From assembly GCA_964016885.1 (NCBI GenBank), contig OZ024743.1, forward strand, positions 148,304,001 to 148,368,000: DNA of 64,000 nt, in the 5' to 3' direction. The stretch's first letter is position 1, and every line of letters begins with the position of its first letter. Positions 1 through 61,961 of the stretch are shown here, piece after piece. The notes under the pieces are model-generated. The model saw nothing but the letters and a program-made list of their open reading frames with translations. It had not been told where the DNA came from and did no database searches. This DNA comes from Eledone cirrhosa (lineage: Eukaryota). Both the position numbers and the translations under genes were made by a program.

Positions 1-551
1 AGAAAAAAAGGAAACCAAAAAAGAAAAAATTCTCTTCCTTCCCCCTCCAAAAACAAAATACAGAGGGAAACTAATAAATTATCGAACAAGAAAGTTAAGA
101 CAGATATGCCACCATCCACACCAGCATCACCAACCCCATCACCACAAACACCAACACCATCACCATCATTAACCCCAACACCACCATCACCAACACCACA
201 AAAGTCACCAAAAAGCGTAATAGAAACAAACCCACAACAAACGCAAACAAAACAAAACAACCAAAACGATACACACTACACAGCATTAAATTTGAACACT
301 ACATGCAACACAACACCAGCATCACAGAAAAAGACTACACAACAACCCCAAAATTCACACCACCTCCAAACATACAAATCACTCGCATCACACAGAAAAC
401 GTACACGAAACTAAAACAAAAATTCCCCAAAGACATCGGAGACTTCCGACAAACACTCTCCAGGAGGATTTATGAGGACATCCTTCCGGAGGAGGCCACA
501 AGTAGTGAAAAGGATGGACAAACCATCCTCCCTCTCCGAGAAGTAAGGTAA
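1..551 (+). pseudogene. ORF1 C-terminal part (low-complexity Pro/Thr-rich) of Tx1 element
   Basis: ORFs 106-414 and 303-551 lie directly upstream of the ORF2 ATG at 586; a frameshift is likely between them. Confidence 0.6.
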
Positions 552-585
552 GTGGTCTTTCCCATCTTTTCCACTCCATTTCAAC

Positions 586-3500
586 ATGACCTCACTCAGA
601 ATAGGCAGCATAAATGCGCGTGGCTTGGGGTCGTCATGGAAGCAGGGCCACCTGCTCAACGACCTCAGGTCACTAAACATAGATGTAGTGGCCATCAGCG
701 AGACCAGAATCTCCGAAGCACGGGCCTTCGCACCGATCTTCGGCGGCTACGATGTGTACGCATCTCCCAGCCGTCCGAGATCGGGGGTGTAGTTGCTGTG
801 CTTTTTCGGCGAGGTTTGGATCTCGCCATACGGGCCATCTTCCTGGACCCAGAAGGTAAGTTGGTGGTGCTAGACGTGACCAGCGGAGACGGGCAAGCTT
901 TCAGGCTAGTGGCCGTCTATGCCCCGACAGGAGCAGGGCGGCCTGATTTCTTCCGGCGTCTGGAGACCTTTCTTGGAACGTCCCGCTCTTTAGTGTTAGT
1001 GGGCGACTGGAACGGGATCTTAGATGCACGCTGGGACTGTGTCGGATTAGCGGATAGGGGAGGAGGGTGCAAGAGCCTCACCAACCTGCTCAGGCGTTTT
1101 GAACTGTCTGACAGGTACCGATTGAATTTCCCTAATGTGCCAATGTGGACTTGGACAAATCGTATAGGGTCATCAAGATCATATCTAGATAGAGTATTTT
1201 GTAGAGAAATAGATAGGTCTAGCATAGGCTGTCCACAATTCAAGATATTCAGCTACACGGACCACAAATTCGTGATCTGTGTGCTTGACTTAGATAGGCT
1301 TCATAGACGATGACCCGGCTACTGGAAGCCAAAAGCGTCCTTACCAGCGCGAAAGGACTACAGAGACCGGATTAGCGAACTAGTTAAGCGGGCGTTGACG
1401 GGGGCCATCGTCAACAACAAGTGGTGGTTTGCTCTGAAAAGAGCAATTAGAATAGAGTCCATTAGGTTTAGTAAGGCTTTAGCAATAGAGAAAATTAGAG
1501 CAGAGGGAGAATTATTTAGAAAATTAGACGAGGCGCTTAGCAAAGGCATCGCGACCGACGTACTTGCGGCGAAATTGGCCTTGACAAATTCTTCAATGCA
1601 AAGCACGAAGGCTGCGTTGTCAGAGCTAGGGTGCGTGCTCTCAGACACGAGGGAACAAAAGCCGTTCAATGGGCCCGAGTGGTTGAGGCGCGTCGTGGCA
1701 TCAAAGCCACGATCCGGTCTTTGGTGGACCACGACGGGCGCATGCTACTCGATCCCGGGCAAATGTGTGAAGCTTTTCAGCGACACTTCGCTCAGCTGTT
1801 CGGGGGCAGCGGTGGGCCGGATCGAGGGATGGACTTTAGTGTCTACCTCGACGGACTGCCGCGGCTCTCGGCCACTGAGGCGGAGTGTTGCGAAAAGCCG
1901 ATAACAGCCGCTGAAGTAAGGGAGGCAATGACTGGCTGCACAAGGGGTAAATCGCCTGGTTTGGATGGTCTGCCCTATGAACTTTACGTACAGATGCCAG
2001 ACTTGTTCGGAGGCCTCTTGGCGGACGTCTACAGCAACTGGCAACACAACGGGAGAATTCCCAGTTCTGTGAGCCGAGGAGCGGTGGCACTGCTGAGAAA
2101 GGATCCGAACAAGGGGGATAACATAGATAATTTCAGGCCCATAACTCTGCTAAACACAGAGTTCAAGATTTTGGCCAAGGTGCTAGCGAAGAGGTTGGCG
2201 CTTGTCGTTTGTTGTCTGGTGGGAGAGGCGCAGACATGCGCCATTCCCGACAGATCCATCCACGACAACCTCCCTCTCATGCGATACATCGTAGAGAGTG
2301 TAGCTAGGGAACCTGGCACGTGTGGGTCCTTGATCAATTTAGATCAGTCGAAACTTTCGATAGGGTCGACCATCGTTACCTAGCGGCAGTCCTGAGGGCG
2401 GCTGGCTTTGGGCCCGTCTTCAGAGGCTGGATCGCTGCCATGCACAGCGACATCTGCTCTGTGGTGAGAGTGAACGGACACCTTTCGGAACCGTTCAACA
2501 TCATGCGCTCGGTCCGCCAAGGATGTCCCCTCTCGTCCCTCTTGTACGTATTGACTCTCGAGCCATTACTGCACAAACTGGAGATGTTGAGGGGCGTCCC
2601 GCCCGAGCTAGGATGCGGAAGATCCGTGTCAGCATATGCGGACGATGTCACCGTAGTGGTGTCGAACGCCAAACACATCGAGACTACCGGCACTACACTA
2701 AGAGAATACGAAGCGGTGACAGGAGCAATGATCAACCAGGAAAAGTCAGTGGGCCTGCAGCTCGGCACCTGGAGAGGCAGGTCCATGCCGTCCAACAGCG
2801 TCGTCGGACGCTGGACGGATGGACCGGTTAAATTGCTAGGGGTCTGGTTCGGTCCGGACCTCCAGACGGACAAAACCTGGGACGAGGTGACGAGCAGGGT
2901 GGCTTCTCTCACCCAGAAATGGGCGGAGAGGAAGCTATCCCTGAAAGGTCGAGCGGAGGTGGCTAACGCGTACATCGCGTCTGTCATCTGCTACCGCCTG
3001 ACCGTCGCACCTTGTCCTAAGCCCCGCCTGACTGCGCTGGAGCGTTTGCTCTTTCGCTTTTTGTGGAAGGGACGCGCTCCGATGGTCAGGCGGTCCATCT
3101 GCTGTCAACACCCGCTACGTGGAGGGCTGGGAATGCCGTGGCTGATTATGCGCAGACACGCGCTCAGTCTACGACATCTCCACCTCTTCCTCGACGGTGA
3201 TCAGGTGTGGTCGCCGTTTGCTAGACACGTATTTTCCCAGCTCGTTTCCTTGACGGAGCTGCAGTCCTGGGTCAAGCGAAGACCGAGAGGGAGCGCCTGG
3301 AGACTGGAATGTCTTCAGGCGCTCACAGCCCTCGACCAATCGGGCAATGTAATCGGTGGAAACTCCACCTCGGCGTTCTATAGAGGATTAGTGGAGGGGA
3401 AGAGCGACGACGGACTTGGGGAAACTCTAGGCGTCGACGAAAATCAACTAGCCAATCTCCTCGGAAGGACTTTCGGGCCGGGACCTATGGACAATTTCCA

Positions 3501-4002
3501 GAAATCTCTGGCCTGGCAGTGCTACCGAGGAGTCTTGCCAGTTCGGGATAAACTCTATAGGCATGGAGGTGCCGTCAGCCGGGCATGTCCGAGATGCGCG
3601 CAGGGCGACGAAACCGTCCTGCACGCACTCGTCCAGAGTCCGAAAATTGCAGACTTGTGGTTTTATGTCGAACACCTGCTGTCGCGTGTAGGACGGATCC
3701 GGTTATCATCTGAGTCCATCGTGAGGATTGCCCCGCCCTTTTCCTTTAGCCGGGAAGGGCAGGCAGTTTTTATCTGTGTGGTGGCCATGGCGAAAGAGAC
3801 AGTATGGTGGACACGTTTGAAAGGGCTGAAGACGAGCACTTACCCCTTCGGTGATACCCTGATTGACTTTTTCAAATTTCATTTGAAAAGGAAAATCAGA
3901 GTAGAGAGGGAAGTGCTCTCTTCCCAGCATTTTGTTGAAAGATGGGTGAGAGAAGCAAGAATGGCCCGAGTGAATGGGCCTACTCTGAGTACGTATCTGT
4001 AA
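586..4002 (+). pseudogene. ORF2: APE endonuclease + reverse transcriptase + zinc finger, disrupted
   Basis: APE motifs: SINARGLG, ISETR, VYAP, LVGDWN, SYLDRVF, YTDHK. RT motifs: KSPGLDGLP, FRPITLLN, RQGCPLS, AYADDV, LLGVWF. Zinc finger: CPRC..ETVLH. Disruptions: frameshifts near 785, 1590 and 2352, and an in-frame TGA near 1310. Confidence 0.93.
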
Positions 4003-17261: not shown

Positions 17262-17313
<52 letters not shown>

Positions 17314-17535
17314 GTAAGTATGTATGTATGTATACGTACATACATATATGTATACAGACGTACAATAGTATGTATATATATACATACATGCACACATATA
17401 TATATATGCACGTATCGGTTTACCAAACATTTATTATAATGCTCGGTTTGTTTGTAAACAAACAAACAGCCCGAATTATGCCGTACAGTGTTTAGGCAAC
17501 CACGTCACCTTTTTGTTCAACACTGACACAGGAAT

Positions 17536-17574
17536 AATGTATTAATTTCAAGCTTATTAGCTATCGTCAGCATC
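17536..17574 (-). ncRNA. Minimal type I hammerhead ribozyme
   Basis: gatg-CTGACGA-tAGCTaataAGCTt-GAA-ATTAAT-A-catt. Confidence 0.8.
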
Positions 17575-17976
17575 GTATACCTTCCTGCCAGATGGTTGAA
17601 CATCTGAAAGTATATACTTTCCTTATGCATATTAACGGCTGAGCAACCTAATTTGCATATCGAGTGAGTTCAGTCGGCCGGGCGCACCGAAAACGATAAA
17701 TGGAATAGAATGAAACGAAATTTAATTTCTCACTCTTAGTACGGCACTTACTTAAATGTAAGTATGTATGTATGTATACGTACATACATATATGTACACA
17801 GACGTACAGTAGTATGTATATATATACATGCACAATATATATATGCACGTATCGGTTTACCGAACATTTATTATAATGTTCGGTTTGTTTGTTTGTAAAC
17901 AAACAAACAGCCCGAATTATGCCGTACAGTGTTTAGGCAACCACGTCACCTTTTTGTTCAACACTGACACAGGAAT

Positions 17977-18015
17977 AATGTATTAGTTTCAAGCTTATTA
18001 GCTATCGTCAGCATC
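17977..18015 (-). ncRNA. Minimal type I hammerhead ribozyme
   Basis: Same as 17536-17574, with stem III ACTAAT. Confidence 0.75.
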
Positions 18016-19021
18016 GTATACCTTCCTGCCAGATGGTTGAACATCTGAAAGTATATACTTTCCTTATGCATATTAACGGCTGAGCAACCTAATTTGCATA
18101 TCGAGTGAGTTCAGTCGGCCGGGCGCACCGAAAACGATAAATGGAATAGAATGAAACGAAATTTAATTTCTCACTCTTAGTACGGCACTTACTTAAATGT
18201 AAGTATGTATGTATGTATACGTACATACATATATGTACACAGACGTACAATAGTATGTATATATATACATACATGCACACATATATATATGCATGTATCG
18301 GTTTACCAAACATTTATTATAATGCTCGGTTTGTTTGTTTGTAAACAAACAAACAGCCCGAATTACGCCGTACAGTGTTTAGGCAACCACGTCACTGCAG
18401 TTTGTTTTGTTATTTTTGTTATTACTTTTACACACACAAACACACACACATATATATTTTATTCAAGGTAAAAAGGCAAAGGTTGATTAAGCTTGGCACG
18501 AGTTACATCGCAATTCATTTCACCAGCCAAGAGAACTGGGGCAATATGAAATACAATGTCTTGCATAAATACAAAACACACTCCATGGTCTGGGAATCGA
18601 ACTCACAATCATAGGATTGTAAATCCAATGTGATAACCGCTAAGCCTCATGCCTTGATATACACACAAGCACACACACACACATATATATATACTATAAA
18701 TTATGTCCATAGAATCATTTGATAAGATATATACACCATTTCCTCTCTCTCTATATATATATATAATGATGGCACATGGCTTAGTGGTGAGAGTGTTGGG
18801 CTTGCACTAATGAGATTGTGAGTTGATGCATTGTGAATTTGAGCAACACACTTATTTCCCATTGCTCCAGAGCTGTAGAAATGAGTTATGACGTCACTGG
18901 TGCCAAGCTATTTTTCCCTTTACTTTTCCCTTGAGAACATTGGTGGCATGGAGAGGGAAGACTTGTGATTCAAAGGGGAAGTTTCTAGGTGCAGATCCCA
19001 TGGTCAATTACCCTTTATATC

Positions 19022-33379: not shown

Positions 33380-33555
33380 TGTTTCTACTTTTGGCACAAG
33401 GCCAGCAATTTCCCAGTGTATTACTGGTACTTTATTTTATCGACCCCGTAAGGATGAAAGGCAAAGTTAACCTCGGCGGGATTTGAACTCAGAATGGCAA
33501 AGGCCGTAACTCTATACGTCAAAGCATGGCGTCCGACCCTCTACCGATACTGCTA
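33380..33555 (-). mobile_element. Nin/Deu-domain tRNA-derived SINE
   Basis: tttgcctttcatccttacggggtcgataaaataaagtaccag domain; target-site duplication agattaacataat at 33367 and 33556. Confidence 0.85.
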
Positions 33556-33614
33556 AGATTAACATAATGAAGCAGAATAGAAGCCAAACCTTGAAAGAAG
33601 AAAAAATGAATACT

Positions 33615-33659
<45 letters not shown>

Positions 33660-33960
33660 CATCATCACCATCATCATCGTTTAATGTCCATATTCCATGC
33701 TAGCATGGGTTAGATGGGTTTGTCCTACTTAGAGGCAAGTTGGGTTAGGTGACTATATCTTGCTTATATAGGACTGTTTCTGGCTGGTTTTCTATGGCTG
33801 GATGTTCTTCCTAACGGCTGGGTGCTTTATCTCGTGACACCTACATGACATATATATATATTATTATAAATGTAAGCTATCGCCGTATTTTGACTAAAGA
33901 CATTATTTAGCATGATAGTGGGGTTAAGAACCTTCGAAGAAATGGAAAAAAGGTGAGTAT

Positions 33961-34032
33961 TGACGTACATGAGAGTCGAACCCACATCTTTGGTTATCCG
34001 GACCTCTGTGCTACCATTTACACCAACACATC
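33961..34032 (-). other. tRNA-like cloverleaf (not a canonical tRNA)
   Basis: Acceptor GATGTGT/GTACGTC-A, D arm GTGT-AAATGGTA-GCAC, anticodon loop CCGGATA, T arm GTGGG-TTCGACT-CTCAT; T-run ~10 nt downstream. Confidence 0.75.
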
Positions 34033-34222
34033 ACCCGTCTTTTTCCATTCAAATTAGAAGCTATAAACTTAGCGACTGTAATGTCAAGTAAGAATATTTT
34101 CGAAACAGCGAGCGGGTTTGAAATTATTATAAATGTAAGCTATCGCCGTATTTTGACTAAAGACATTATTTAGCCTGATAGTGGGGTTAAGAACCCTCGT
34201 AGAAATGGAAAAAGATGAGTAT

Positions 34223-34294
34223 TGACGTACATGGGAGTCGAACCCACATCTTTGGTTATCCGGACCACTGTGTTACCATTTACACCAACACATC
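34223..34294 (-). other. tRNA-like cloverleaf, best-paired copy
   Basis: D stem GTGT/ACAC, anticodon stem TGGT/ACCA, T stem GTGGG/CCCAT; C33 instead of U33. Confidence 0.8.
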
Positions 34295-34577
34295 ACCTGT
34301 CTTTTTCCATTCAAATTAGAAGCTATAAACATAGCGACTGTAATTTCCATTTCTCCGAGGGTTCTTAACCCCACTATCAGGCTAAATAATGTATTTAGTC
34401 AAAATACGGCGATAGCTTACAAAATATAAATTGATAAAATAAATACCATACTTGAGGAAACCCATAAGTGAATAAAAAAACATACATAAACACATACACA
34501 CACACACACATATATATATATATATCGGGAATTTACCTACTATATATATGTATATATATATATACACACACACTCAT

Positions 34578-34754: not shown

Positions 34755-34935
34755 GGGCGGTGGATTGGCAGTATTGGGAGAGGGTCGGACGCCATGCTTT
34801 GACGTATAGAGTTACGGCCCTTGCCATTCTGAGTTCAAATCTCGCCGAGGTTAACTTTGCCTTTCATCCTTACGGTGTCGATAAAATAAAGTACCAGTAA
34901 TGCCAGTTGGCCTTGTGCCTAACGTAGAAACAATT
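34755..34935 (+). mobile_element. Nin/Deu-domain SINE, full length
   Basis: ggcggtggattggcag head, B box, Nin domain, agaaacaattat end; ~20-bp target-site duplication attatctataaa(a/g)ggcagat. Confidence 0.88.
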
Positions 34936-35470
34936 ATCTATAAAGGGCAGATTGTTGTTGTGTGTGTGTGTGTGCATGTTCCATGTTTATACATTTGCAC
35001 AATTTCAAACCAATTAGACTCAACGTCTGTAAGAATGTTGTAAATGGTCTTACTTAGGTCAACGACTATTTATTTCATTAAATCTCACCCACAATTATGG
35101 AAGTAATCGATAAAAATAAATACATGACGCTTTATCCCTCTAATAGAATCTGATTACCTCGCTCTACTCCCCTTAAAATTCGATAAAACTAGATGCATGC
35201 TTACAAACTTCCTTTAGGAATGCCGGAGAGAGAAGAGAGTGAGGGGGGGGGGGAGAGGAGGAACGTTTGTTTTTGAGTGTGGAACTGTCAAACATTTATT
35301 TACTTCAATGACAAAGAGAACTTATTACATTTCATACGAAACAACAATTATTCAAAAGCAACAGATAAATTTATTCAACAACAAAAAAAATAGCGATAAA
35401 TCTTTTTTAAAACCTCTCAACGAACGTGGAAGAAAGAAGTATCAGTTTATTTACTATACACAATAATATA

Positions 35471-35835
35471 CTCTATGAGGTCACTAAACCTGCTAGAAAC
35501 AGCAGCTAACTCTCCCCCATATCACACCACTTCCCACTGTCTTAAATGTAGAAAGCATATCCTCTATGAGGTCACTAAACCTGCTAGAAACAGCAGCTAA
35601 CTCTCCCCCTATCACACCACTTCCTACTGTCTTAAATGTAGAAAGCACATATCCTCTATGAGGTCACTAAACCTGCTAGAAACAGCAGCTAACTCTCCCC
35701 CTATCACACCACTCCCTACTGTCTTAAATTTAGAAAACATATCCTCTATGAGGTCACTAAACCTGCTAGAAACAGCAGCTAACTCTCCTCCATATCACAC
35801 CACTCCCTACTGTCTTAAATTTAGAAAACACACAT
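35471..35835 (+). repeat. ~91-bp tandem repeat x4 derived from a dispersed repeat
   Basis: Unit ctctatgaggtcactaaacctgctagaaacagcagctaactctcc...; diverged monomers at ~20390, 43590, 43875, 44900 and 46340. Confidence 0.9.
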
Positions 35836-37756: not shown

Positions 37757-37790
37757 CACCTGAGGAAGGGCTTATGCCCGAAACGTCGTT
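37757..37790 (+). ncRNA. Minimal hammerhead in short PLE-end insert (37750-37880)
   Basis: cac-CTGAGGA-a-GGGCttatGCCC-GAA-ACGT-C-gt; stem I is weak. AATAAA and a TTTTTCCATTA terminus follow. Confidence 0.7.
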
Positions 37791-52983: not shown

Positions 52984-53083
<100 letters not shown>

Positions 53084-54076
53084 TAAAATAACAGATTAAA
53101 GTTTAAGCAAAGAATCGCTGCTTTCACCCTTAACGGGACCTTCTGAAACTAACAAAGTCAATCTGTAAACGCAGAAGTGGATATTTAAAAAACGTTGCAA
53201 CCGGAGGAAGACAGGAAGACGATACTTTGGTTCGTGGAAACGCTCGCTGGCAAAGAACGGGAAAAAACGAATAAGATACGTCATTAATAGGAGCGGTGAA
53301 AAACAATTACGCGCAAAGACAGAACCACGTTTATGGTATAAAAGTGGTCGTAGACTAATGTTCTCTTAGGTGGTTCATAGAGACGTTCTCCGGCAATGAA
53401 TGAAAAAAACGAAGATAATACGTCATAGGTGGATCGTGGAGAACAATAGCACGCAAAGACAAAACCACGTAAATGGTATAGCAGAAGTCGTAGACTAAAA
53501 TTCTAACTAGGAGACCGAATGAATCTCCGCTACAGAGTTAAGAACAAAGTAAATAAATACAATACAGAAGTAATAGAAATAAATAAATACATACCCGCTA
53601 ACAAATACGTACATACACAAGCAAACGCAAAACACTTACCATAGGTATACAAAACCACGCACATATAAATATGTGTGTGTGTGTATGCGTGTGTACAAAT
53701 AAATAAATAATTAAATAAATACGTATATAACAAGCGCACACACATACCTCCATGTAAATACATGAATGTTCGGAGACGTAAGTCAAGCAAAACATGAAAT
53801 ACACATATACACACACCCTACATACGTACGAACCTGCATACTCACACAGACGCAAAACTCCTGTATACACATAGCCAAACCATAGGTACCAGAATAAAAA
53901 AAATAAAAAATGTATACGCCATAACATAAACAATCAAATATACGTACGGGAAGGTATAGGTAACTTCACGAAACATACGGGTAATATATACTTACCTATG
54001 CAAATAAGTAATTGTATAAACAAAACATATACTTAGCTCCCACATCAAGACGTAAAATATCCACGTTTAGATCGTA

Positions 54077-55680
54077 CTATCCGTTAGGGTATAACGTGTG
54101 GCTGTAATACAGGAAGGTTTTGTGCAATTTATGTTTACAAGCCGAAATTGCCTCAGACTTTTTGTTTAAGATGTGGTCTGTGGCGCAGAGTATTTCCAGG
54201 GCCTCAGCGGCGCAGAAGTCACATCGTCTTTTCTTTCCGTTATACGATCTAGCCCTAGCTAAGATCTCCCAGTGTAACTTATATTGGGTGTGGTTGTCTT
54301 TTAGACTCCAGATATAAGCTGAAAGTGACGTTATATTCCTTCTTGGAGGGTAACGAAAAGAATGGGTATGCGTGTAAAGACGCTGCTTGAATCTATTGGC
54401 GGTTAACACTATGTAGGCCCTACGGGACGTGAGTGTTACAACCTTACATTTGTAGACAATGTTACTAGAGAGGCATTTCCCGGAAAGGGGGAAATCAACC
54501 CGATTCCTACAATTACAGTTAGTACTAACTACAGGGTTGCACGTGTTCCTACGGCTAGGTAGTTTAGCTAAATTTGAAGCTGTGATGTTATGTGCAAGGT
54601 TAGGAGTCGTAGAGTAGGAAATTTTAATAGTATTTCTATTAAAAATTTTACTATATTTATGTGTAGGGGGAAAATGCTTCGTAATAAGGGAAAGAAATAT
54701 CTTAGCTAAAAGTGTGGCCACCTCCATATTATATGGTGGGTTATACCAACAAATGCGACGGGATCTATTTCTTCTAGGTCTATTTTCGTACTCTGTATAT
54801 GCTACCTTATCGACAAATCCACTTCGAGCAAGAGCTTCATTGTAATAAGTGGAATGGTCGTTGAAAATACGCTCGTTGGTGGAAAGACGGGAAAGCCTCA
54901 ACGAAACGTTACTTACCAGGTTCTTGGTTATGCTGGCAGGATGGTTGGAATGCTTACTTATGTAATTAAGCGTATCATTCGGCTTTCTATACGGGTAATA
55001 CAACCCATTCAATAAATTGAGGGTAACGTCAAGGTAATTAACGACCGAGAGATTGGCCTCAACCTGTATAGAGAGGTTGAAGCCTTTAAAGAAGGCTGTG
55101 AGTTCTTTTCTGAACCTGTCGCAAGCACGAGGTCCGCACTTAGTTATGGTCAAAAGACCGTCGTCACGGTACAAACTACCGCCCGCGTTAGGGAATTCGT
55201 CCTTGATAGAGAAAAGAAGGAAAAGGCCGATAAGATCAGTAACCTCCGCAGAATCACTGGCGCCCATACTCACGTCGAATGGGGTACTATTGGATTTTTT
55301 AATCCAAATAGAGTCGTCGAAATTAATCACCGACTTTCGGGCATTCAGGATGACATCAACTTCGAAATCCTTAACCACTGTGAGTGTTTTAACGAAATTG
55401 ATAGCTCTAAGAAGAAGTGGTAAAGTGATGGAGGAGTAGTAATCGTTGATGTCGAATTGGATAAAACGGCAATGTTCCTTGTTACATATGCCGTTGAACC
55501 AATCAATCACCGCGAAAGAATTGTTCCACAGTGCAAGAGAGAGGCCAAACTTCTAATTTCAGGTATAATTCTATCAAGAATCGTTTTACTAAGTCTACCT
55601 AAATCGGACTTCGTAGGGTTAATAAGCCGAATAGAGGGGTTTTTCGGAAAATTGGATTTGTGATCCTTCAGGGTAAAGTG
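54077..55680 (-). pseudogene. PLE reverse transcriptase + Zn finger + GIY-YIG endonuclease (N-truncated, one frameshift near 55538)
   Basis: TLKDHK..RLINPTKS, FDINDYYSSI, MGA, YRDDGL, YLDVTLNL, WYNPPY, CNCR..PL.GKC, IVYKC..YI, CDFC..E, LNKKSE..CKH. Confidence 0.92.
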
Positions 55681-56510
55681 GGGGAGAAATAGGGTCCAGA
55701 GGTTCGGTCCGGTCCAGGATGTTTTGATTGTTTATGTTATGGCGTATACATTTTTTTATTTTTTATTCTGGTACATATGGTTTGGCTATGTGTATACGGG
55801 AGTTTTGCGTCTGTGTGAGTATGCAGGTTCGTACGTATGTAGGGTGTGTGTATATGCGTATTTCATGTTTTGCTTGACTTACGTCTCCTAACATTCGTGT
55901 ATTTACATGGAGGTATGTGTGTGCGCTTGTTATATACGTATTTATTTAATTATTTATTTATTTGTACACACGCATACACACACACACATATTTATATGTG
56001 CGTGGTTTTGTATACCTATGGTAAGTGTTTTGCGTTTGCTTGTGTATATACGTATTTGTTAGCGGGTATGTATTTATTTATTTCTATTACTTCTGTATTG
56101 TATTTATTTACTTTGTTCTTAACTCTGTAGCGGAGATTCATTCGGTCTCCTAGTTAGAATTTTAGTCTACGACTTCTGCTATACCATTTACGTGGTTTTG
56201 TCTTTGCGTGCTATTGTTCTCCACGCTCCACATATGACGTATTATCTTCGTTTTTTTCGTTCATTGCCGGAGAACGTCTCTATGAACCACCTAAGAGAAC
56301 ATTAGTCTACGACCTCTTTTATGCCATAAACGTGGTTCTGTCTTTGCGCGTAATTGTTTTTCACCGCTCCTATTAATGACGTATCTTATTCGTTTTTTCC
56401 CGTTCTTTGCCAGCGAGCGTTTCCACGAACCAAAGTATCGTCTTCCTGTCTTCCTCCGGTTGCAACGTTTTTTGAAATATCCTCTTCTGCGTTTACAGAT
56501 TGACTTTGTT

Positions 56511-56561
56511 AGTTTCAGAAGATCCCGTTAAGGGGGAAAGCAGCGATTCTTTGCTTAAACT
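56511..56561 (+). ncRNA. Hammerhead-like motif (CAGAAGA core variant); mirror copy 53100-53150 (-)
   Basis: AGTTT-CAGAAGA-tCCCgttaaGGGg-GAA-AGCA..TGCT-T-AAACT; all three stems are present. Confidence 0.6.
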
Positions 56562-56668
56562 TTAATCTGTTATTTTAATAAATATTTGCTCTACGGTTCT
56601 TATATATTTGATATATATTTATCCTTATCGAGCCCTCTTTGGATTTTAGTCTTGAAATTTATTATTAT

Positions 56669-56710
<42 letters not shown>

Positions 56711-59539: not shown

Positions 59540-61092
59540 AAGATGAATATAAAATGAAAGTGCTTTTTAAAAAAAAAGGAATTTATTAGGTATTGACATA
59601 TGTTTATGTAACAGACGGAATACCTATGTATCGCTGCTTGCGTAATCATATAATGTTAGCAAGTATTCGATAGCAAATGTATAACCAGTTGTCACTTCTT
59701 CAGAGATTTTGGATAAATTGGCTAAAATCAGAAAAATTGAAGTATTTATATTAGTTGTAATAGAGGAAGAAGAGTATATGACAGTAGTATATGACAGATG
59801 GTAATTCAATTTACTGCTAAACAAGTATATGAAGGGTTTCTAATGAGAATACAATGAGTAAATGGTTTATTTTATCTAAATAAGAATTTTGGGGAGTGCC
59901 TATTTTAATCTATACTTGACCAATTGAACAATGGACAGGGCTGGTCATTTGGTGTAGTAGTATTAATTATAAAGTGTCAATTGAGGAAGGGGGAGATTTC
60001 GACTGCTACTGAATAACATCAATGCTAGTAGCCAGCTGGTATATGCATTAGGGAATTGAATTAAGAAATCAGAAATCTCATTTTATCTATAGCAGTTTAT
60101 ATTAAATGGTAAATAATAGAAGAATTGATAGCATTAAGACTAGTAGAATGTTAATATGTAGTTTGACAATCAAACGGAGATGGAGACAGGCGTTCAATCC
60201 TGGTAGTATTTGTAATATGAAAATGTAGATTTTAAGCGATGGATACAGTATAACGATCGCTCTATTCTGTTATTTAATAAAATGTTTTGGATTTCATAAT
60301 ACAAAATAATTCCATATTACATAATTTACAAAATTCCTGTCCGTGGGATTATATGGAGGGGCAGCTGCTATTATATCCCATTTTAGGTTAAATTGTTGGT
60401 TATTTTCACGCAGCTGCCAAGCCTTGTCCGCGAGTGTTGTTACATAACGCTGGTTTTCATGTTTTATCGAGTAACGATGTCTATAAAGGCGTGATTTGAA
60501 GGAGGTGGCTGTAGATCCCACATAGTACCACTTCTGTCTATCCGATTCGATAGTACATTTGTATATGATGTTGCGTTCAAGACACTGATTGTTCAACGGA
60601 CACATTCCTGATTGGACACAGTTACAGTTATAATTTTGCGTTGTTGTATTGGCATGGATGGGTTGCTTAGGTAGGACAGGATGTTGTTTGTTGTTTTGTG
60701 ATGTTATAGCTAATGTTTTACGTGTATTGTTATGTGTTGGAAGGCGTTTATACAACCGTTTTGCGTTAAGCTTTTTTATATGTTGTTCAATATTAGGGGC
60801 GGTTGAATATGAAAGTCGAATAGTGTTAGGGTTTAAGATTTTATTATATTTATGTGATGTTGGAAAGTGTTTTTTAACTAATTGAAATGATTGTGAGGGT
60901 AAATTGGTGTTAATAGAGTTGTTATAGACCTGGTTGTACCAAATATACTCTTTACATCGCCTTCTGTTTGGTGGTGTGCGACTATTATTGTGTCTAACAG
61001 CGTACGTGTAGGTTTGCTCAACGAGTATAAATTATATTCCGGAGAAAATGTAGAAAAGATGAATATATAATGAAAGTGCTTTTTTTAAAAAA

Positions 61093-61961
61093 CACCCAAA
61101 ATATATCCCATAGGAGTAGAAATAGCACAGAATCACCACCATACATACACTACCGCAATAGACACAATAATAGTCGCACACCACCAAACAGAAGGCGATG
61201 TAAAGAGTATATTTGGTACAACCAGGTCTATAACAACTCTATTAACACCAATCTACCCTCACAATCATTTCAATTAGTTAAAAAACACTTTCCAACATCA
61301 CATAAATATAATAAAATCTTAAACCCTAACACTATTCGACTTTCATATTCAACCGCCCCTAATATTGAACAACATATAAAAAAGCTTAGCGCAAAACGGT
61401 TGTATAAACGCCTTCCAACACATAACAATACACGTAAAACATTAGCTATAACATCACAAAACAACAAACAACATCCTGTCCTACCTAAGCAACCCATCCA
61501 TGCCAATACAACAACGCAAAATTATAACTGTAACTGTGTCCAATCAGGAATGTGTCCGTTGAACAATCAGTGTCTTGAACGCAACATCATATACAAATGT
61601 ACTATCGAATCGGATAGACAGAAGTGGTACTATGTGGGATCTACAGCCACCTCCTTCAAATCACGCGTTTATAGACATCGTTACTCGATAAAACATGAAA
61701 ACCAGCGTTATATAACAACACTCGCGGACAAGGCTTGGCAGCTGCGTGAAAATAACCAACAATTTAACCTAAAATGGGATATAATAGCAGCTGCCCCTCC
61801 ATATAATCCCACGGACAGGAATTTTGTAAATTATGTAATATGGAATTATTTTGTATTATGAAATCCAAAACATTTTATTAAATAACAGAATAGAGCGATC
61901 GTTATACTGTAACCATCGCTTAAAATCTACATTTTCATATTACAAATACTACCAGGATTGA
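61093..61961 (+). pseudogene. PLE Zn finger + GIY-YIG C-terminal fragment (mirror copy 60201-60995 on -)
   Basis: WYNQVY, HKYNKILN..IRLSYS, CNC..CPLNNQC, IIYKC..YVGST; after frameshifts, CKLC..E and LNNRIE..CNH. Confidence 0.9.

Follow-up and report, generated by a model that had tools for sequence, protein, structure and literature searches.

The insertion at 33861–34421 of the window, by which we mean the whole 64,000-nt stretch of Eledone cirrhosa DNA that was analyzed, is a partial tandem whose sense strand is the minus strand and whose unit contains no ORF. A reading made from the sequence alone had described a 262-bp tandem unit with an inverted partial arm, and this description holds: TRF gives a period of 262 with 1.8 copies and 95% matches at 33860–34344, and the 78-nt inverted arm at 34344–34421 has a complementarity of 95–97%. 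The tandem consists of a full 262-bp unit at 33861–34122 (minus strand) and a 5′-truncated upstream unit, unit positions 38–262, at 34123–34347 (minus strand), and the arm repeats unit positions 175–252 on the plus strand. As at other loci of the family, an (AT)n target tract, recognized in the sequence at 33850–33860, lies at the fixed 3′ end.

In each unit there is a 72-nt tRNA-like cloverleaf, read on the minus strand. That of the upstream unit (34223–34294; A box 34276–34287, B box 34235–34244) matches the Rfam tRNA family at 43.6 bits with an E value of 6e-8 and is the only one of the two that ARAGORN calls, and the cloverleaf of the downstream unit (33961–34032; A box 34014–34025, B box 33973–33982), which has two stem mutations, scores 29.4 bits against a gathering score of 29. 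Within 33780–34460, no Rfam family besides tRNA was matched at E≤10. The earlier claim of a full cloverleaf is borne out by these scores and by the A and B boxes; the anticodon stem in the window has four pairs, with 27-43 mismatched. The two boxes, the U-run and a further stem that encloses the cloverleaf all lie where the sequence-only reading had put them. A U5-U6 run follows each cloverleaf, and in the upstream unit the Pol III terminator-like U5 run and the 3′ strand of the enclosing stem occupy 34203–34217, with the 5′ strand at 34300–34311 (both on the minus strand). The 5′ strand of the downstream unit (34038–34049, minus strand) has the U-run strand of the upstream unit as its predicted partner in a two-cloverleaf transcript (P 1.00 in the window dimer). 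The cloverleaf starts about 90 nt inside the unit and not at the 5′ end of the monomer, which agrees with the earlier view that it is internal and not a SINE-like 5′ head. Equally well founded was the statement that no canonical hammerhead is present, as the core CUGANGA is absent from both strands of the tandem and Rfam finds tRNA only. A look-alike, CUGAUAG, is confined to the antisense strand; an antisense hammerhead with the enclosing stem as its stem III was considered and rejected, because the core reads CUGAUAG, in the antisense sense, in nearly all aligned copies.

The window copy belongs to a large family, A, of non-coding units of 260–290 bp in a 3.0-Gb host assembly that is rich in (TA)n. 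The genome contains 5,322 exact matches to a 30-place motif located 3′ of the cloverleaf, against 0 for its control, and 1,654 matches to a motif around the anticodon loop. For an unbiased sample of loci we took the first matches of the 30-place motif on one chromosome, giving 82 loci, of which 9 overlapping ones were dropped to leave 73. (TA)4 or longer adjoins an element end at 67 of these 73 loci, an inverted arm is found at 44, a one-arm extension or tail of 33–66 nt at 52 (33–47 nt in 40 of the 52, with A2-type tails reaching 66), and a full unit in tandem at 10. The 3′ end is fixed, and the partial tandem units are joined head to tail with nothing between them. Passages of PMC8557442 and PMC11167929 list partial tandems, an inverted 5′-truncated copy, a 30–40 bp tail and a (TA)n target as insertion marks of Penelope-like elements (PLEs), and the latter source relates the tail to two internal start sites of the reverse transcriptase. 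We therefore read the (TA)n ends, inverted arms, tails and tandem units as marks of PLE insertion, and we hold with high confidence that the family is a real, non-autonomous PLE-type element under selection, as the sequence-only reading had proposed for a PLE-mobilized element. Its (TA)n setting holds for the family and only in part for the window copy, which touches a short (AT)6 with its 3′ end only, has no TA adjoining its inverted arm and lacks a tail. Dispersed insertions, with their fixed 3′ ends, their tails and their inversions, predominate. Long arrays also occur: 10 full unit copies lie in one array on C4 at 61.009–61.012 Mb, about two dozen diverged unit copies in another (L059), and C28 has an array of about 50 kb of ~290-bp units at 19.62–19.67 Mb. 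An apparent fixed 5′ end at unit position 218 was discarded as an artefact of a 9-nt duplication. In a single insertion (L016, L018), a 9-nt duplication is present in the 3′-most unit and absent from the upstream unit, with private changes common to both units; it represents slippage during or after copying.

Several other repeats share the window. Two 137-nt, 96% complementary copies of a common SINE-like repeat at 33420–33556 and 34765–34901 flank the element and are separate from it, broken non-LTR retrotransposon ORFs lie at 552–4002, and a 91-bp unit is repeated in four tandem copies at 35466–35827. An abundant PLE-like element with a C-terminal endonuclease-like region occupies 53080–56680 (ORF 54077–55552, minus strand); its 87 scored copies are 94–96% identical in protein, a frame of 713 aa is open in many of them, and it has a tail and (TA)n ends. 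Pfam gave no match for it, and neither a tRNA nor a shared hammerhead core was found in 11 of its loci. A second PLE-like family with about 36% protein identity is represented at 60294–61861 by an inverted pair of ORF fragments. No hammerhead core was found in the autonomous PLE of the window. When the ends of the element were compared with those of the PLEs in the window, and with these PLEs only, no significant similarity emerged, 68–396 of 500 shuffles scoring equally high. Canonical-looking hammerhead cores are present elsewhere in the window at 37760 (plus strand) and at 17570, 18011 and 22648 (minus strand), and two of the window cores fall in a 441-bp tandem at 17309–18395 that probably represents ordinary retrozymes.

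Alignment of 99 units separates family A into three subfamilies that are 15–18% apart, and the differences between them largely spare the cloverleaf. Columns that differ between subfamilies number 7 of 72 in the cloverleaf and 1 of 20 in the 3′ strand of the enclosing stem, compared with 34 of 74 and 31 of 90 in the flanks. One subfamily, A2, lacks pairs 1-71 and 2-70 in this register. An older relative, E, is 68% identical to A and has compensatory stem changes: among 18 hand-picked A and E copies, seven pairs have changed on both sides, and covariation is 0.251 as against 0.174 in shuffles, a comparison that the relatedness of the copies inflates. In its upper half the cloverleaf is both conserved and covarying when A is compared with E, and the anticodon arm is likewise conserved with compensatory changes. 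Stem conservation and covariation, which the sequence-only reading had proposed as a check, were thus found, and judged from these alignments, selection on the cloverleaf is supported.

A further feature of this cloverleaf lies in its anticodon loop. Positions 32–35, CCGG in the window, form a self-complementary tetramer in all the main lineages seen (CUGG, CCGG and the compensatory CGCG, with CCGG in older relatives), and the stems and positions 36–38 change between lineages while the self-pairing of 32–35 stays. Of 158 cloverleaves taken from 73 loci, 145 can pair at both 32:35 and 33:34; the sample was deliberately enriched for CGCG and CTGG loci, and its loop states are CTGG (73), CCGG (47), CGCG (20) and others (18). 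A hand count of the first 100 listed matches to the anticodon-loop motif gave CTGG 53, CCGG 24 and CGCG 10. Position 33 is normally fixed in tRNA. Here it is the most variable among columns 22–65, and 32, 35 and 36–38 stay. The C33 that had been singled out as non-canonical is a property of the subfamily in the window, and across the family as sampled U33 occurs most often (84 of 158). The CGCG loops form a derived clade inside subfamily A3 with one CTCG copy at the clade base, and CCGG appears to be derived within A1 on a tree with weak inner support. Copies in which 33 is not C and 34 is not G number 214, and a hand count of the first 100 found CGCG 79, CTAG 8 and CGTG 4; 91 of these 100 are self-pairing. 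By post hoc arithmetic on one event, the odds that a double change would both fall on 33/34 and pair there are about 1 in 60, and the compensatory loop change within A is a single event.

Older families extend this pattern with different stems. Family E has the anticodon stem CUCGU/ACGAG with CAA at 36–38 and CCGG in 8 of 15 copies; among E copies chosen without the anticodon arm and in register (n=22), there are about 7 with CCGG, 7 with CCAG and 6 with CTGG, and the similar numbers of CCAG and CTGG beside CCGG suggest symmetric CpG decay. Family C has a unit of about 286 bp with inverted arms, the anticodon stem UCUAG/CUGGR and UAU at 36–38, and the 53 copies counted include CCGG 22, CCAG 10 and CTGG 3, again read as CpG decay. 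A CpG-centered CCGG has been kept across relatives that are about 68–70% identical. E and C were first detected with a pattern that required CCGG and further old relatives with a YSSR pattern, so the discovery of all of them is biased by patterns that demanded the palindrome; the loop was left free in the recounts. Moreover, E, C and the older families all appear homologous and are not independent origins. Old diverged tRNA-like repeats (L288–L307, L042, L043 and L049) are 62–72% alike and have CCGG-YAU loops, and a relative of A (L304, 71% to A) has CGCG-AAA with a different stem, the same loop being present in L303. These old repeats and L304 were picked out by eye from the YSSR pattern and are known from their tRNA-like part, not from PLE architecture. 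A fold-back derivative of family C (L106–L120) is centered on CTAG in the anticodon stem and lacks the 5′ tRNA half; loops of CCGC/AAGA with the same junction occur at 13 of 20 loci, and CCGC with the 5′ half at 2 more. A repeat of about 1.9 kb (L031–L036, family B) starts with the palindrome CACCTAC...GTAGGTG, has an internal inverted repeat and contains an intact tRNA-Ala(GGC)-like gene in which 32–35 is CCGG too. It was rejected as a further case, as its architecture differs and it had been selected by the palindrome pattern. A pattern search for a tRNA-Arg(CCG) gene that could have been the source by a register shift gave mainly UCG genes and no CCG gene; 34 tRNA-Arg(UCG)-type matches cluster on C6 at 63.12–63.17 Mb. 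A metagenome scan for the cloverleaf returned 0 matches.

A self-complementary loop allows two cloverleaves to exchange strands. In the exchanged fold, 31 pairs with 39′, 32–35 pair with 35′–32′ and positions 36–38 bulge on both strands, which gives a strict bulge-helix-bulge (BHB), that is, a 4-bp helix between two 3-nt bulges with flanking helices, that natural dimers can form. This geometry matches the strict hBHBh′ definition and the canonical 37/38 site as given in passages of PMC3978253 and PMC6614914. In the window, the predicted strands of the central helix are the CCGG palindromes at 34260–34263 and 33998–34001 (both minus strand), the corresponding cuts would fall at 34258/34257 and 33996/33995, and the predicted excised RNA, from position 38 to position 37 of the next cloverleaf (34257–33996, minus strand), is 262 nt long, one unit, and could form a circle. 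For the isolated window arms, the BHB is at −12.6 kcal/mol and two hairpins at −3.5, with an alternative longer duplex at −14.2. Dimer transcripts were also folded, starting immediately ahead of one cloverleaf and ending with the U-run that follows the next. Of 14 natural dimers, 13 had a constrained BHB fold lower in energy than two local cloverleaves (window dimer, −6.8 kcal/mol), and the enclosing stem took the between-unit register with P 0.7–1.0 in 9 of the 14. Ranked by BHB-dimer energy among the 256 four-mers, CCGG and CGCG take ranks 1 and 2 and CUGG is 14th; CUUC, the loop of a host tRNA-Arg, scores −3.2 against −4.0 for CUGG. The free ensemble, in a model without tertiary contacts or modifications, favors a longer duplex around the palindrome, with P(31:39′ pair) of 0.06–0.18 in three dimers and P(32:35′) of 0.00–0.17 for CUGG dimers. 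In the text drawn on from PMC6614914, C32-G forms the proximal pair in each of the 16 intron-containing fly tRNAs, G-U at helix positions 2-3 is present in a tRNA-Tyr reporter, as it would be with CUGG, and giving the helix two or three more pairs lowers splicing in fly and human reporters. As stronger helices lowered reporter splicing, the fully Watson-Crick CCGG and CGCG are awkward for a reading in which the host tRNA splicing endonuclease (TSEN) makes the cuts. A BHB inside an mRNA is described as sufficient for Xenopus TSEN in vitro, with 5′-OH and cyclic phosphate products (PMC10485636, in part), and RtcB is described as closing retrozyme monomers with such ends into circles (PMC7229834, in part). 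The hammerheads of PLEs likewise have a palindromic loop and are thought to be active as dimers, according to a passage in PMC6765202.

The places where copies end offer a view of the template. Ends were tallied for 98 arms at 71 loci, two further loci having been dropped as flank duplicates. Among the 90 arms that reach cloverleaf position 69, 54 end at positions 56–69, in the T arm, compared with 3 of 36 at 42–55 (Fisher p 4e-8) and 9 of 33 at 28–41 (p 0.002). Part of the peak at 62–63 is owed to microhomology supplied by two 4-mer palindromes within 56–69, and six ends fall at 56–58, around the T-loop adenine (standard A58). The modification m1A at this adenine blocks reverse transcriptases. 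The pile-up in the T arm suggests, from the positions of these ends, a template that carries a folded and perhaps m1A58-modified cloverleaf. The same tally went against the idea that RNase P and RNase Z set the ends, which the sequence-only reading had proposed to check by 5′ truncation points, as only 2 of 98 arms end at −2..3 and 2 of 98 at 72–74. Pol III transcription from this promoter is plausible, but the fixed element ends fall at neither the tRNA nor its U-run. An apparent hotspot at cloverleaf position 42 proved to be BLAST over-extension. A search for recombination breakpoints at 37/38 gave 3 discordant units among 158, which is uninformative.

We propose, at a probability of about 0.5, that this is a PLE-type tandem element whose tRNA module is likely a Pol III promoter and, when paired with a second copy, a predicted TSEN substrate that replaces the hammerhead of retrozymes. 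Pol III would start near the first cloverleaf, pass one U5 run and stop at the next. The enclosing stem would then pair across units and the cloverleaf halves would swap, with 32–35 of both copies forming the 4-bp helix flanked by the 3-nt bulges of 36–38. TSEN would cut both copies at 37/38 to release one unit with a 5′-OH and a 2′,3′-cyclic phosphate, which are hammerhead-type ends, and RtcB would join these ends into a circle of 260–290 nt with one intact cloverleaf. A PLE reverse transcriptase would begin internally at two sites, giving the tail, would often stall where the T arm is folded and perhaps carries m1A58, and would sometimes roll on to make the tandem copies that serve as the next active masters. 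The 16 of 98 arms that extend past position −6 favor a circle, because a linear Pol III dimer transcript cannot template such arms. Against the model, arm ends at 37–39 (2 of 98) give no trace of a linear cut product. The wider claim, a long-lived superfamily of ribozyme-free retrozymes in which a palindromic loop makes an intron-like BHB for TSEN and RtcB to cut and circularize for Penelope reverse transcriptases, we regard as tentative, at a little under even odds; such a superfamily may extend to other phyla. In both, host tRNA machinery would stand in for a ribozyme, and this part of the sequence-only reading survives in our best model with different enzymes.

Whether processing is needed at all is the question raised by one alternative, in which the tRNA is an internal Pol III promoter only, comparable to that of the Helenus and Cassandra TRIMs and the SINE-like repeats of Schistosoma, the PLE copies linear multimeric read-through RNA, and the palindrome reflects inheritance and chance. 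The A box, B box and U5 run are intact, and long arrays such as the 10 units at C4 61.01 Mb and those of L059 could yield multimers. Hammerhead cleavage is dispensable for a PLE in vitro, where RNA that had not been processed was the main substrate (PMC11167929, in part), so processing may be unneeded altogether. The fold-back derivative of C has spread with a non-palindromic loop, which also counts against a loop requirement. Yet a promoter has no need of the anticodon arm that is conserved here with compensatory changes, the only main-lineage changes in its loop preserve self-pairing, the CpG-centered loop has been retained in E and C, and each unit has a terminator-like run. We consider this alternative unlikely. 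Somewhat more doubtful is a nuclease-free reading in which the palindromic loop is an RNA kissing or dimerization signal through which a dimeric PLE protein receives two templates, the two cDNAs yielding inverted insertions. The frequent inverted arms would suit it, and in CCGG dimers the free ensemble pairs 32–35 without bulges, but beside retroviral kissing signals a four-base palindrome is short. In A, E and C it occupies the 5′ side of the loop and is followed by three free bases, and this is the register of a BHB; the flanking 31:36 pairing is lost in E. On the other side, a dimeric state is predicted for the PLE protein, which primes both strands (PMC11167929, in part).

Excision of the cloverleaf by RNase P and RNase Z, as in mascRNA, would also set RNA ends, and the conserved, covarying upper half and the two arms that start exactly at cloverleaf position 1 are what it would lead one to expect. 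We think it improbable: the ends, a genomic proxy, do not pile up at 1 or 73, the leader and trailer of the cloverleaf are predicted to be paired (P 0.8–1.0), and A2 is without the top two acceptor pairs in this register, all of which makes these enzymes unlikely to set template ends. In addition, cuts at both ends would strip the tRNA from the template, and full units retain it. Least probable of all is that the cloverleaf is a stability or localization module, such as a modified tRNA mimic bound by protein, or else the passenger of a satellite-like repeat. The strong copy stop in the T arm suggests a folded or modified template tRNA, and the one array of about 50 kb on C28 is satellite-like, but dispersed insertions are the rule and the palindrome would be left unexplained.

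If the TSEN model is true, this transposon hijacks tRNA splicing by passing itself off as a tRNA intron, which would be a novel mechanism among transposons. It would provide a natural animal TSEN substrate outside tRNA genes and a counterpart of engineered tricRNA vectors. The convergence of two unrelated devices, a dimeric hammerhead and a dimeric tRNA, on the same end chemistry would further argue that PLE-type elements need circular templates. Even if the model is false, thousands of copies of a PLE-dependent family that carries a tRNA inflate the tRNA-Ser predictions for this genome, and the T-arm stop is a genomic readout of template structure or modification.

In the literature searched, a scope that excludes Repbase/Dfam, supplements and most subscription papers, we found no tRNA-bearing PLE-dependent element and no TSEN-using transposon. 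The closest relatives in design are the animal non-LTR retrozymes, which in the available passages of PMC7229834 and 10.64898/2026.07.22.740005 are non-coding tandem units of 170–400 nt that depend on PLEs and have RtcB-closed circles as proposed templates for reverse transcription. Each of their units has a type I hammerhead by which they cleave themselves, whereas the element here has a tRNA cloverleaf instead and would be cleaved by a protein enzyme of the host; the term "tRNA" is absent from the covered text of the Li et al. 2026 preprint (10.64898/2026.07.22.740005). PLEs and non-autonomous forms such as MRC1 share the partial tandems, the inverted 5′-truncated copy, the tail and the (TA)n targets (PMC8557442 and PMC11167929, in part), but the present element has no ORF and has an internal tRNA. 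In the SINE-like hammerhead repeats of Schistosoma, the Pol III promoter of one tandem unit drives the next and monomers are freed from multimers (PMC6765202, in part). Those repeats are cut by a hammerhead that the element here lacks, and its tRNA would be the cut site.

Other systems resemble the tRNA part. In the consulted portion of Kojima 2024 (PMC10886601), the Helenus and Cassandra TRIMs have a tRNA-like Pol III cassette in the repeat of a non-autonomous retroelement, combined with an LTR-PBS-PPT design, use of an integrase and conservation centered on the A and B boxes; "Penelope" is absent from that portion. Helenus (TRIMp3) has two LTRs around a PBS/PPT region, whereas the units here are joined directly, head to tail. 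Circularly permuted tRNA genes (type II, 37/38) and tricRNAs come near in mechanism, with an RNA in the order 3′ half, spacer and 5′ half, a BHB at 37/38 and a circular product of the splicing machinery, and a review cites the in vitro cutting of a tandem pre-tRNA by an endonuclease from archaea (PMC3978253 and PMC6614914, in part). They yield working tRNAs or intron circles, whereas here the BHB would arise from an intronless palindromic loop and the putative circle would be a template for retrotransposition. The tRNA mimics mascRNA and menRNA also lie inside a longer RNA; in contrast to them, the element ends off the cloverleaf ends, and its leader and trailer are predicted to be paired. By architecture the element is thus neither a SINE nor a Helenus TRIM, and it would work like a non-LTR retrozyme, though it lacks the hammerhead and carries a tRNA in its place.
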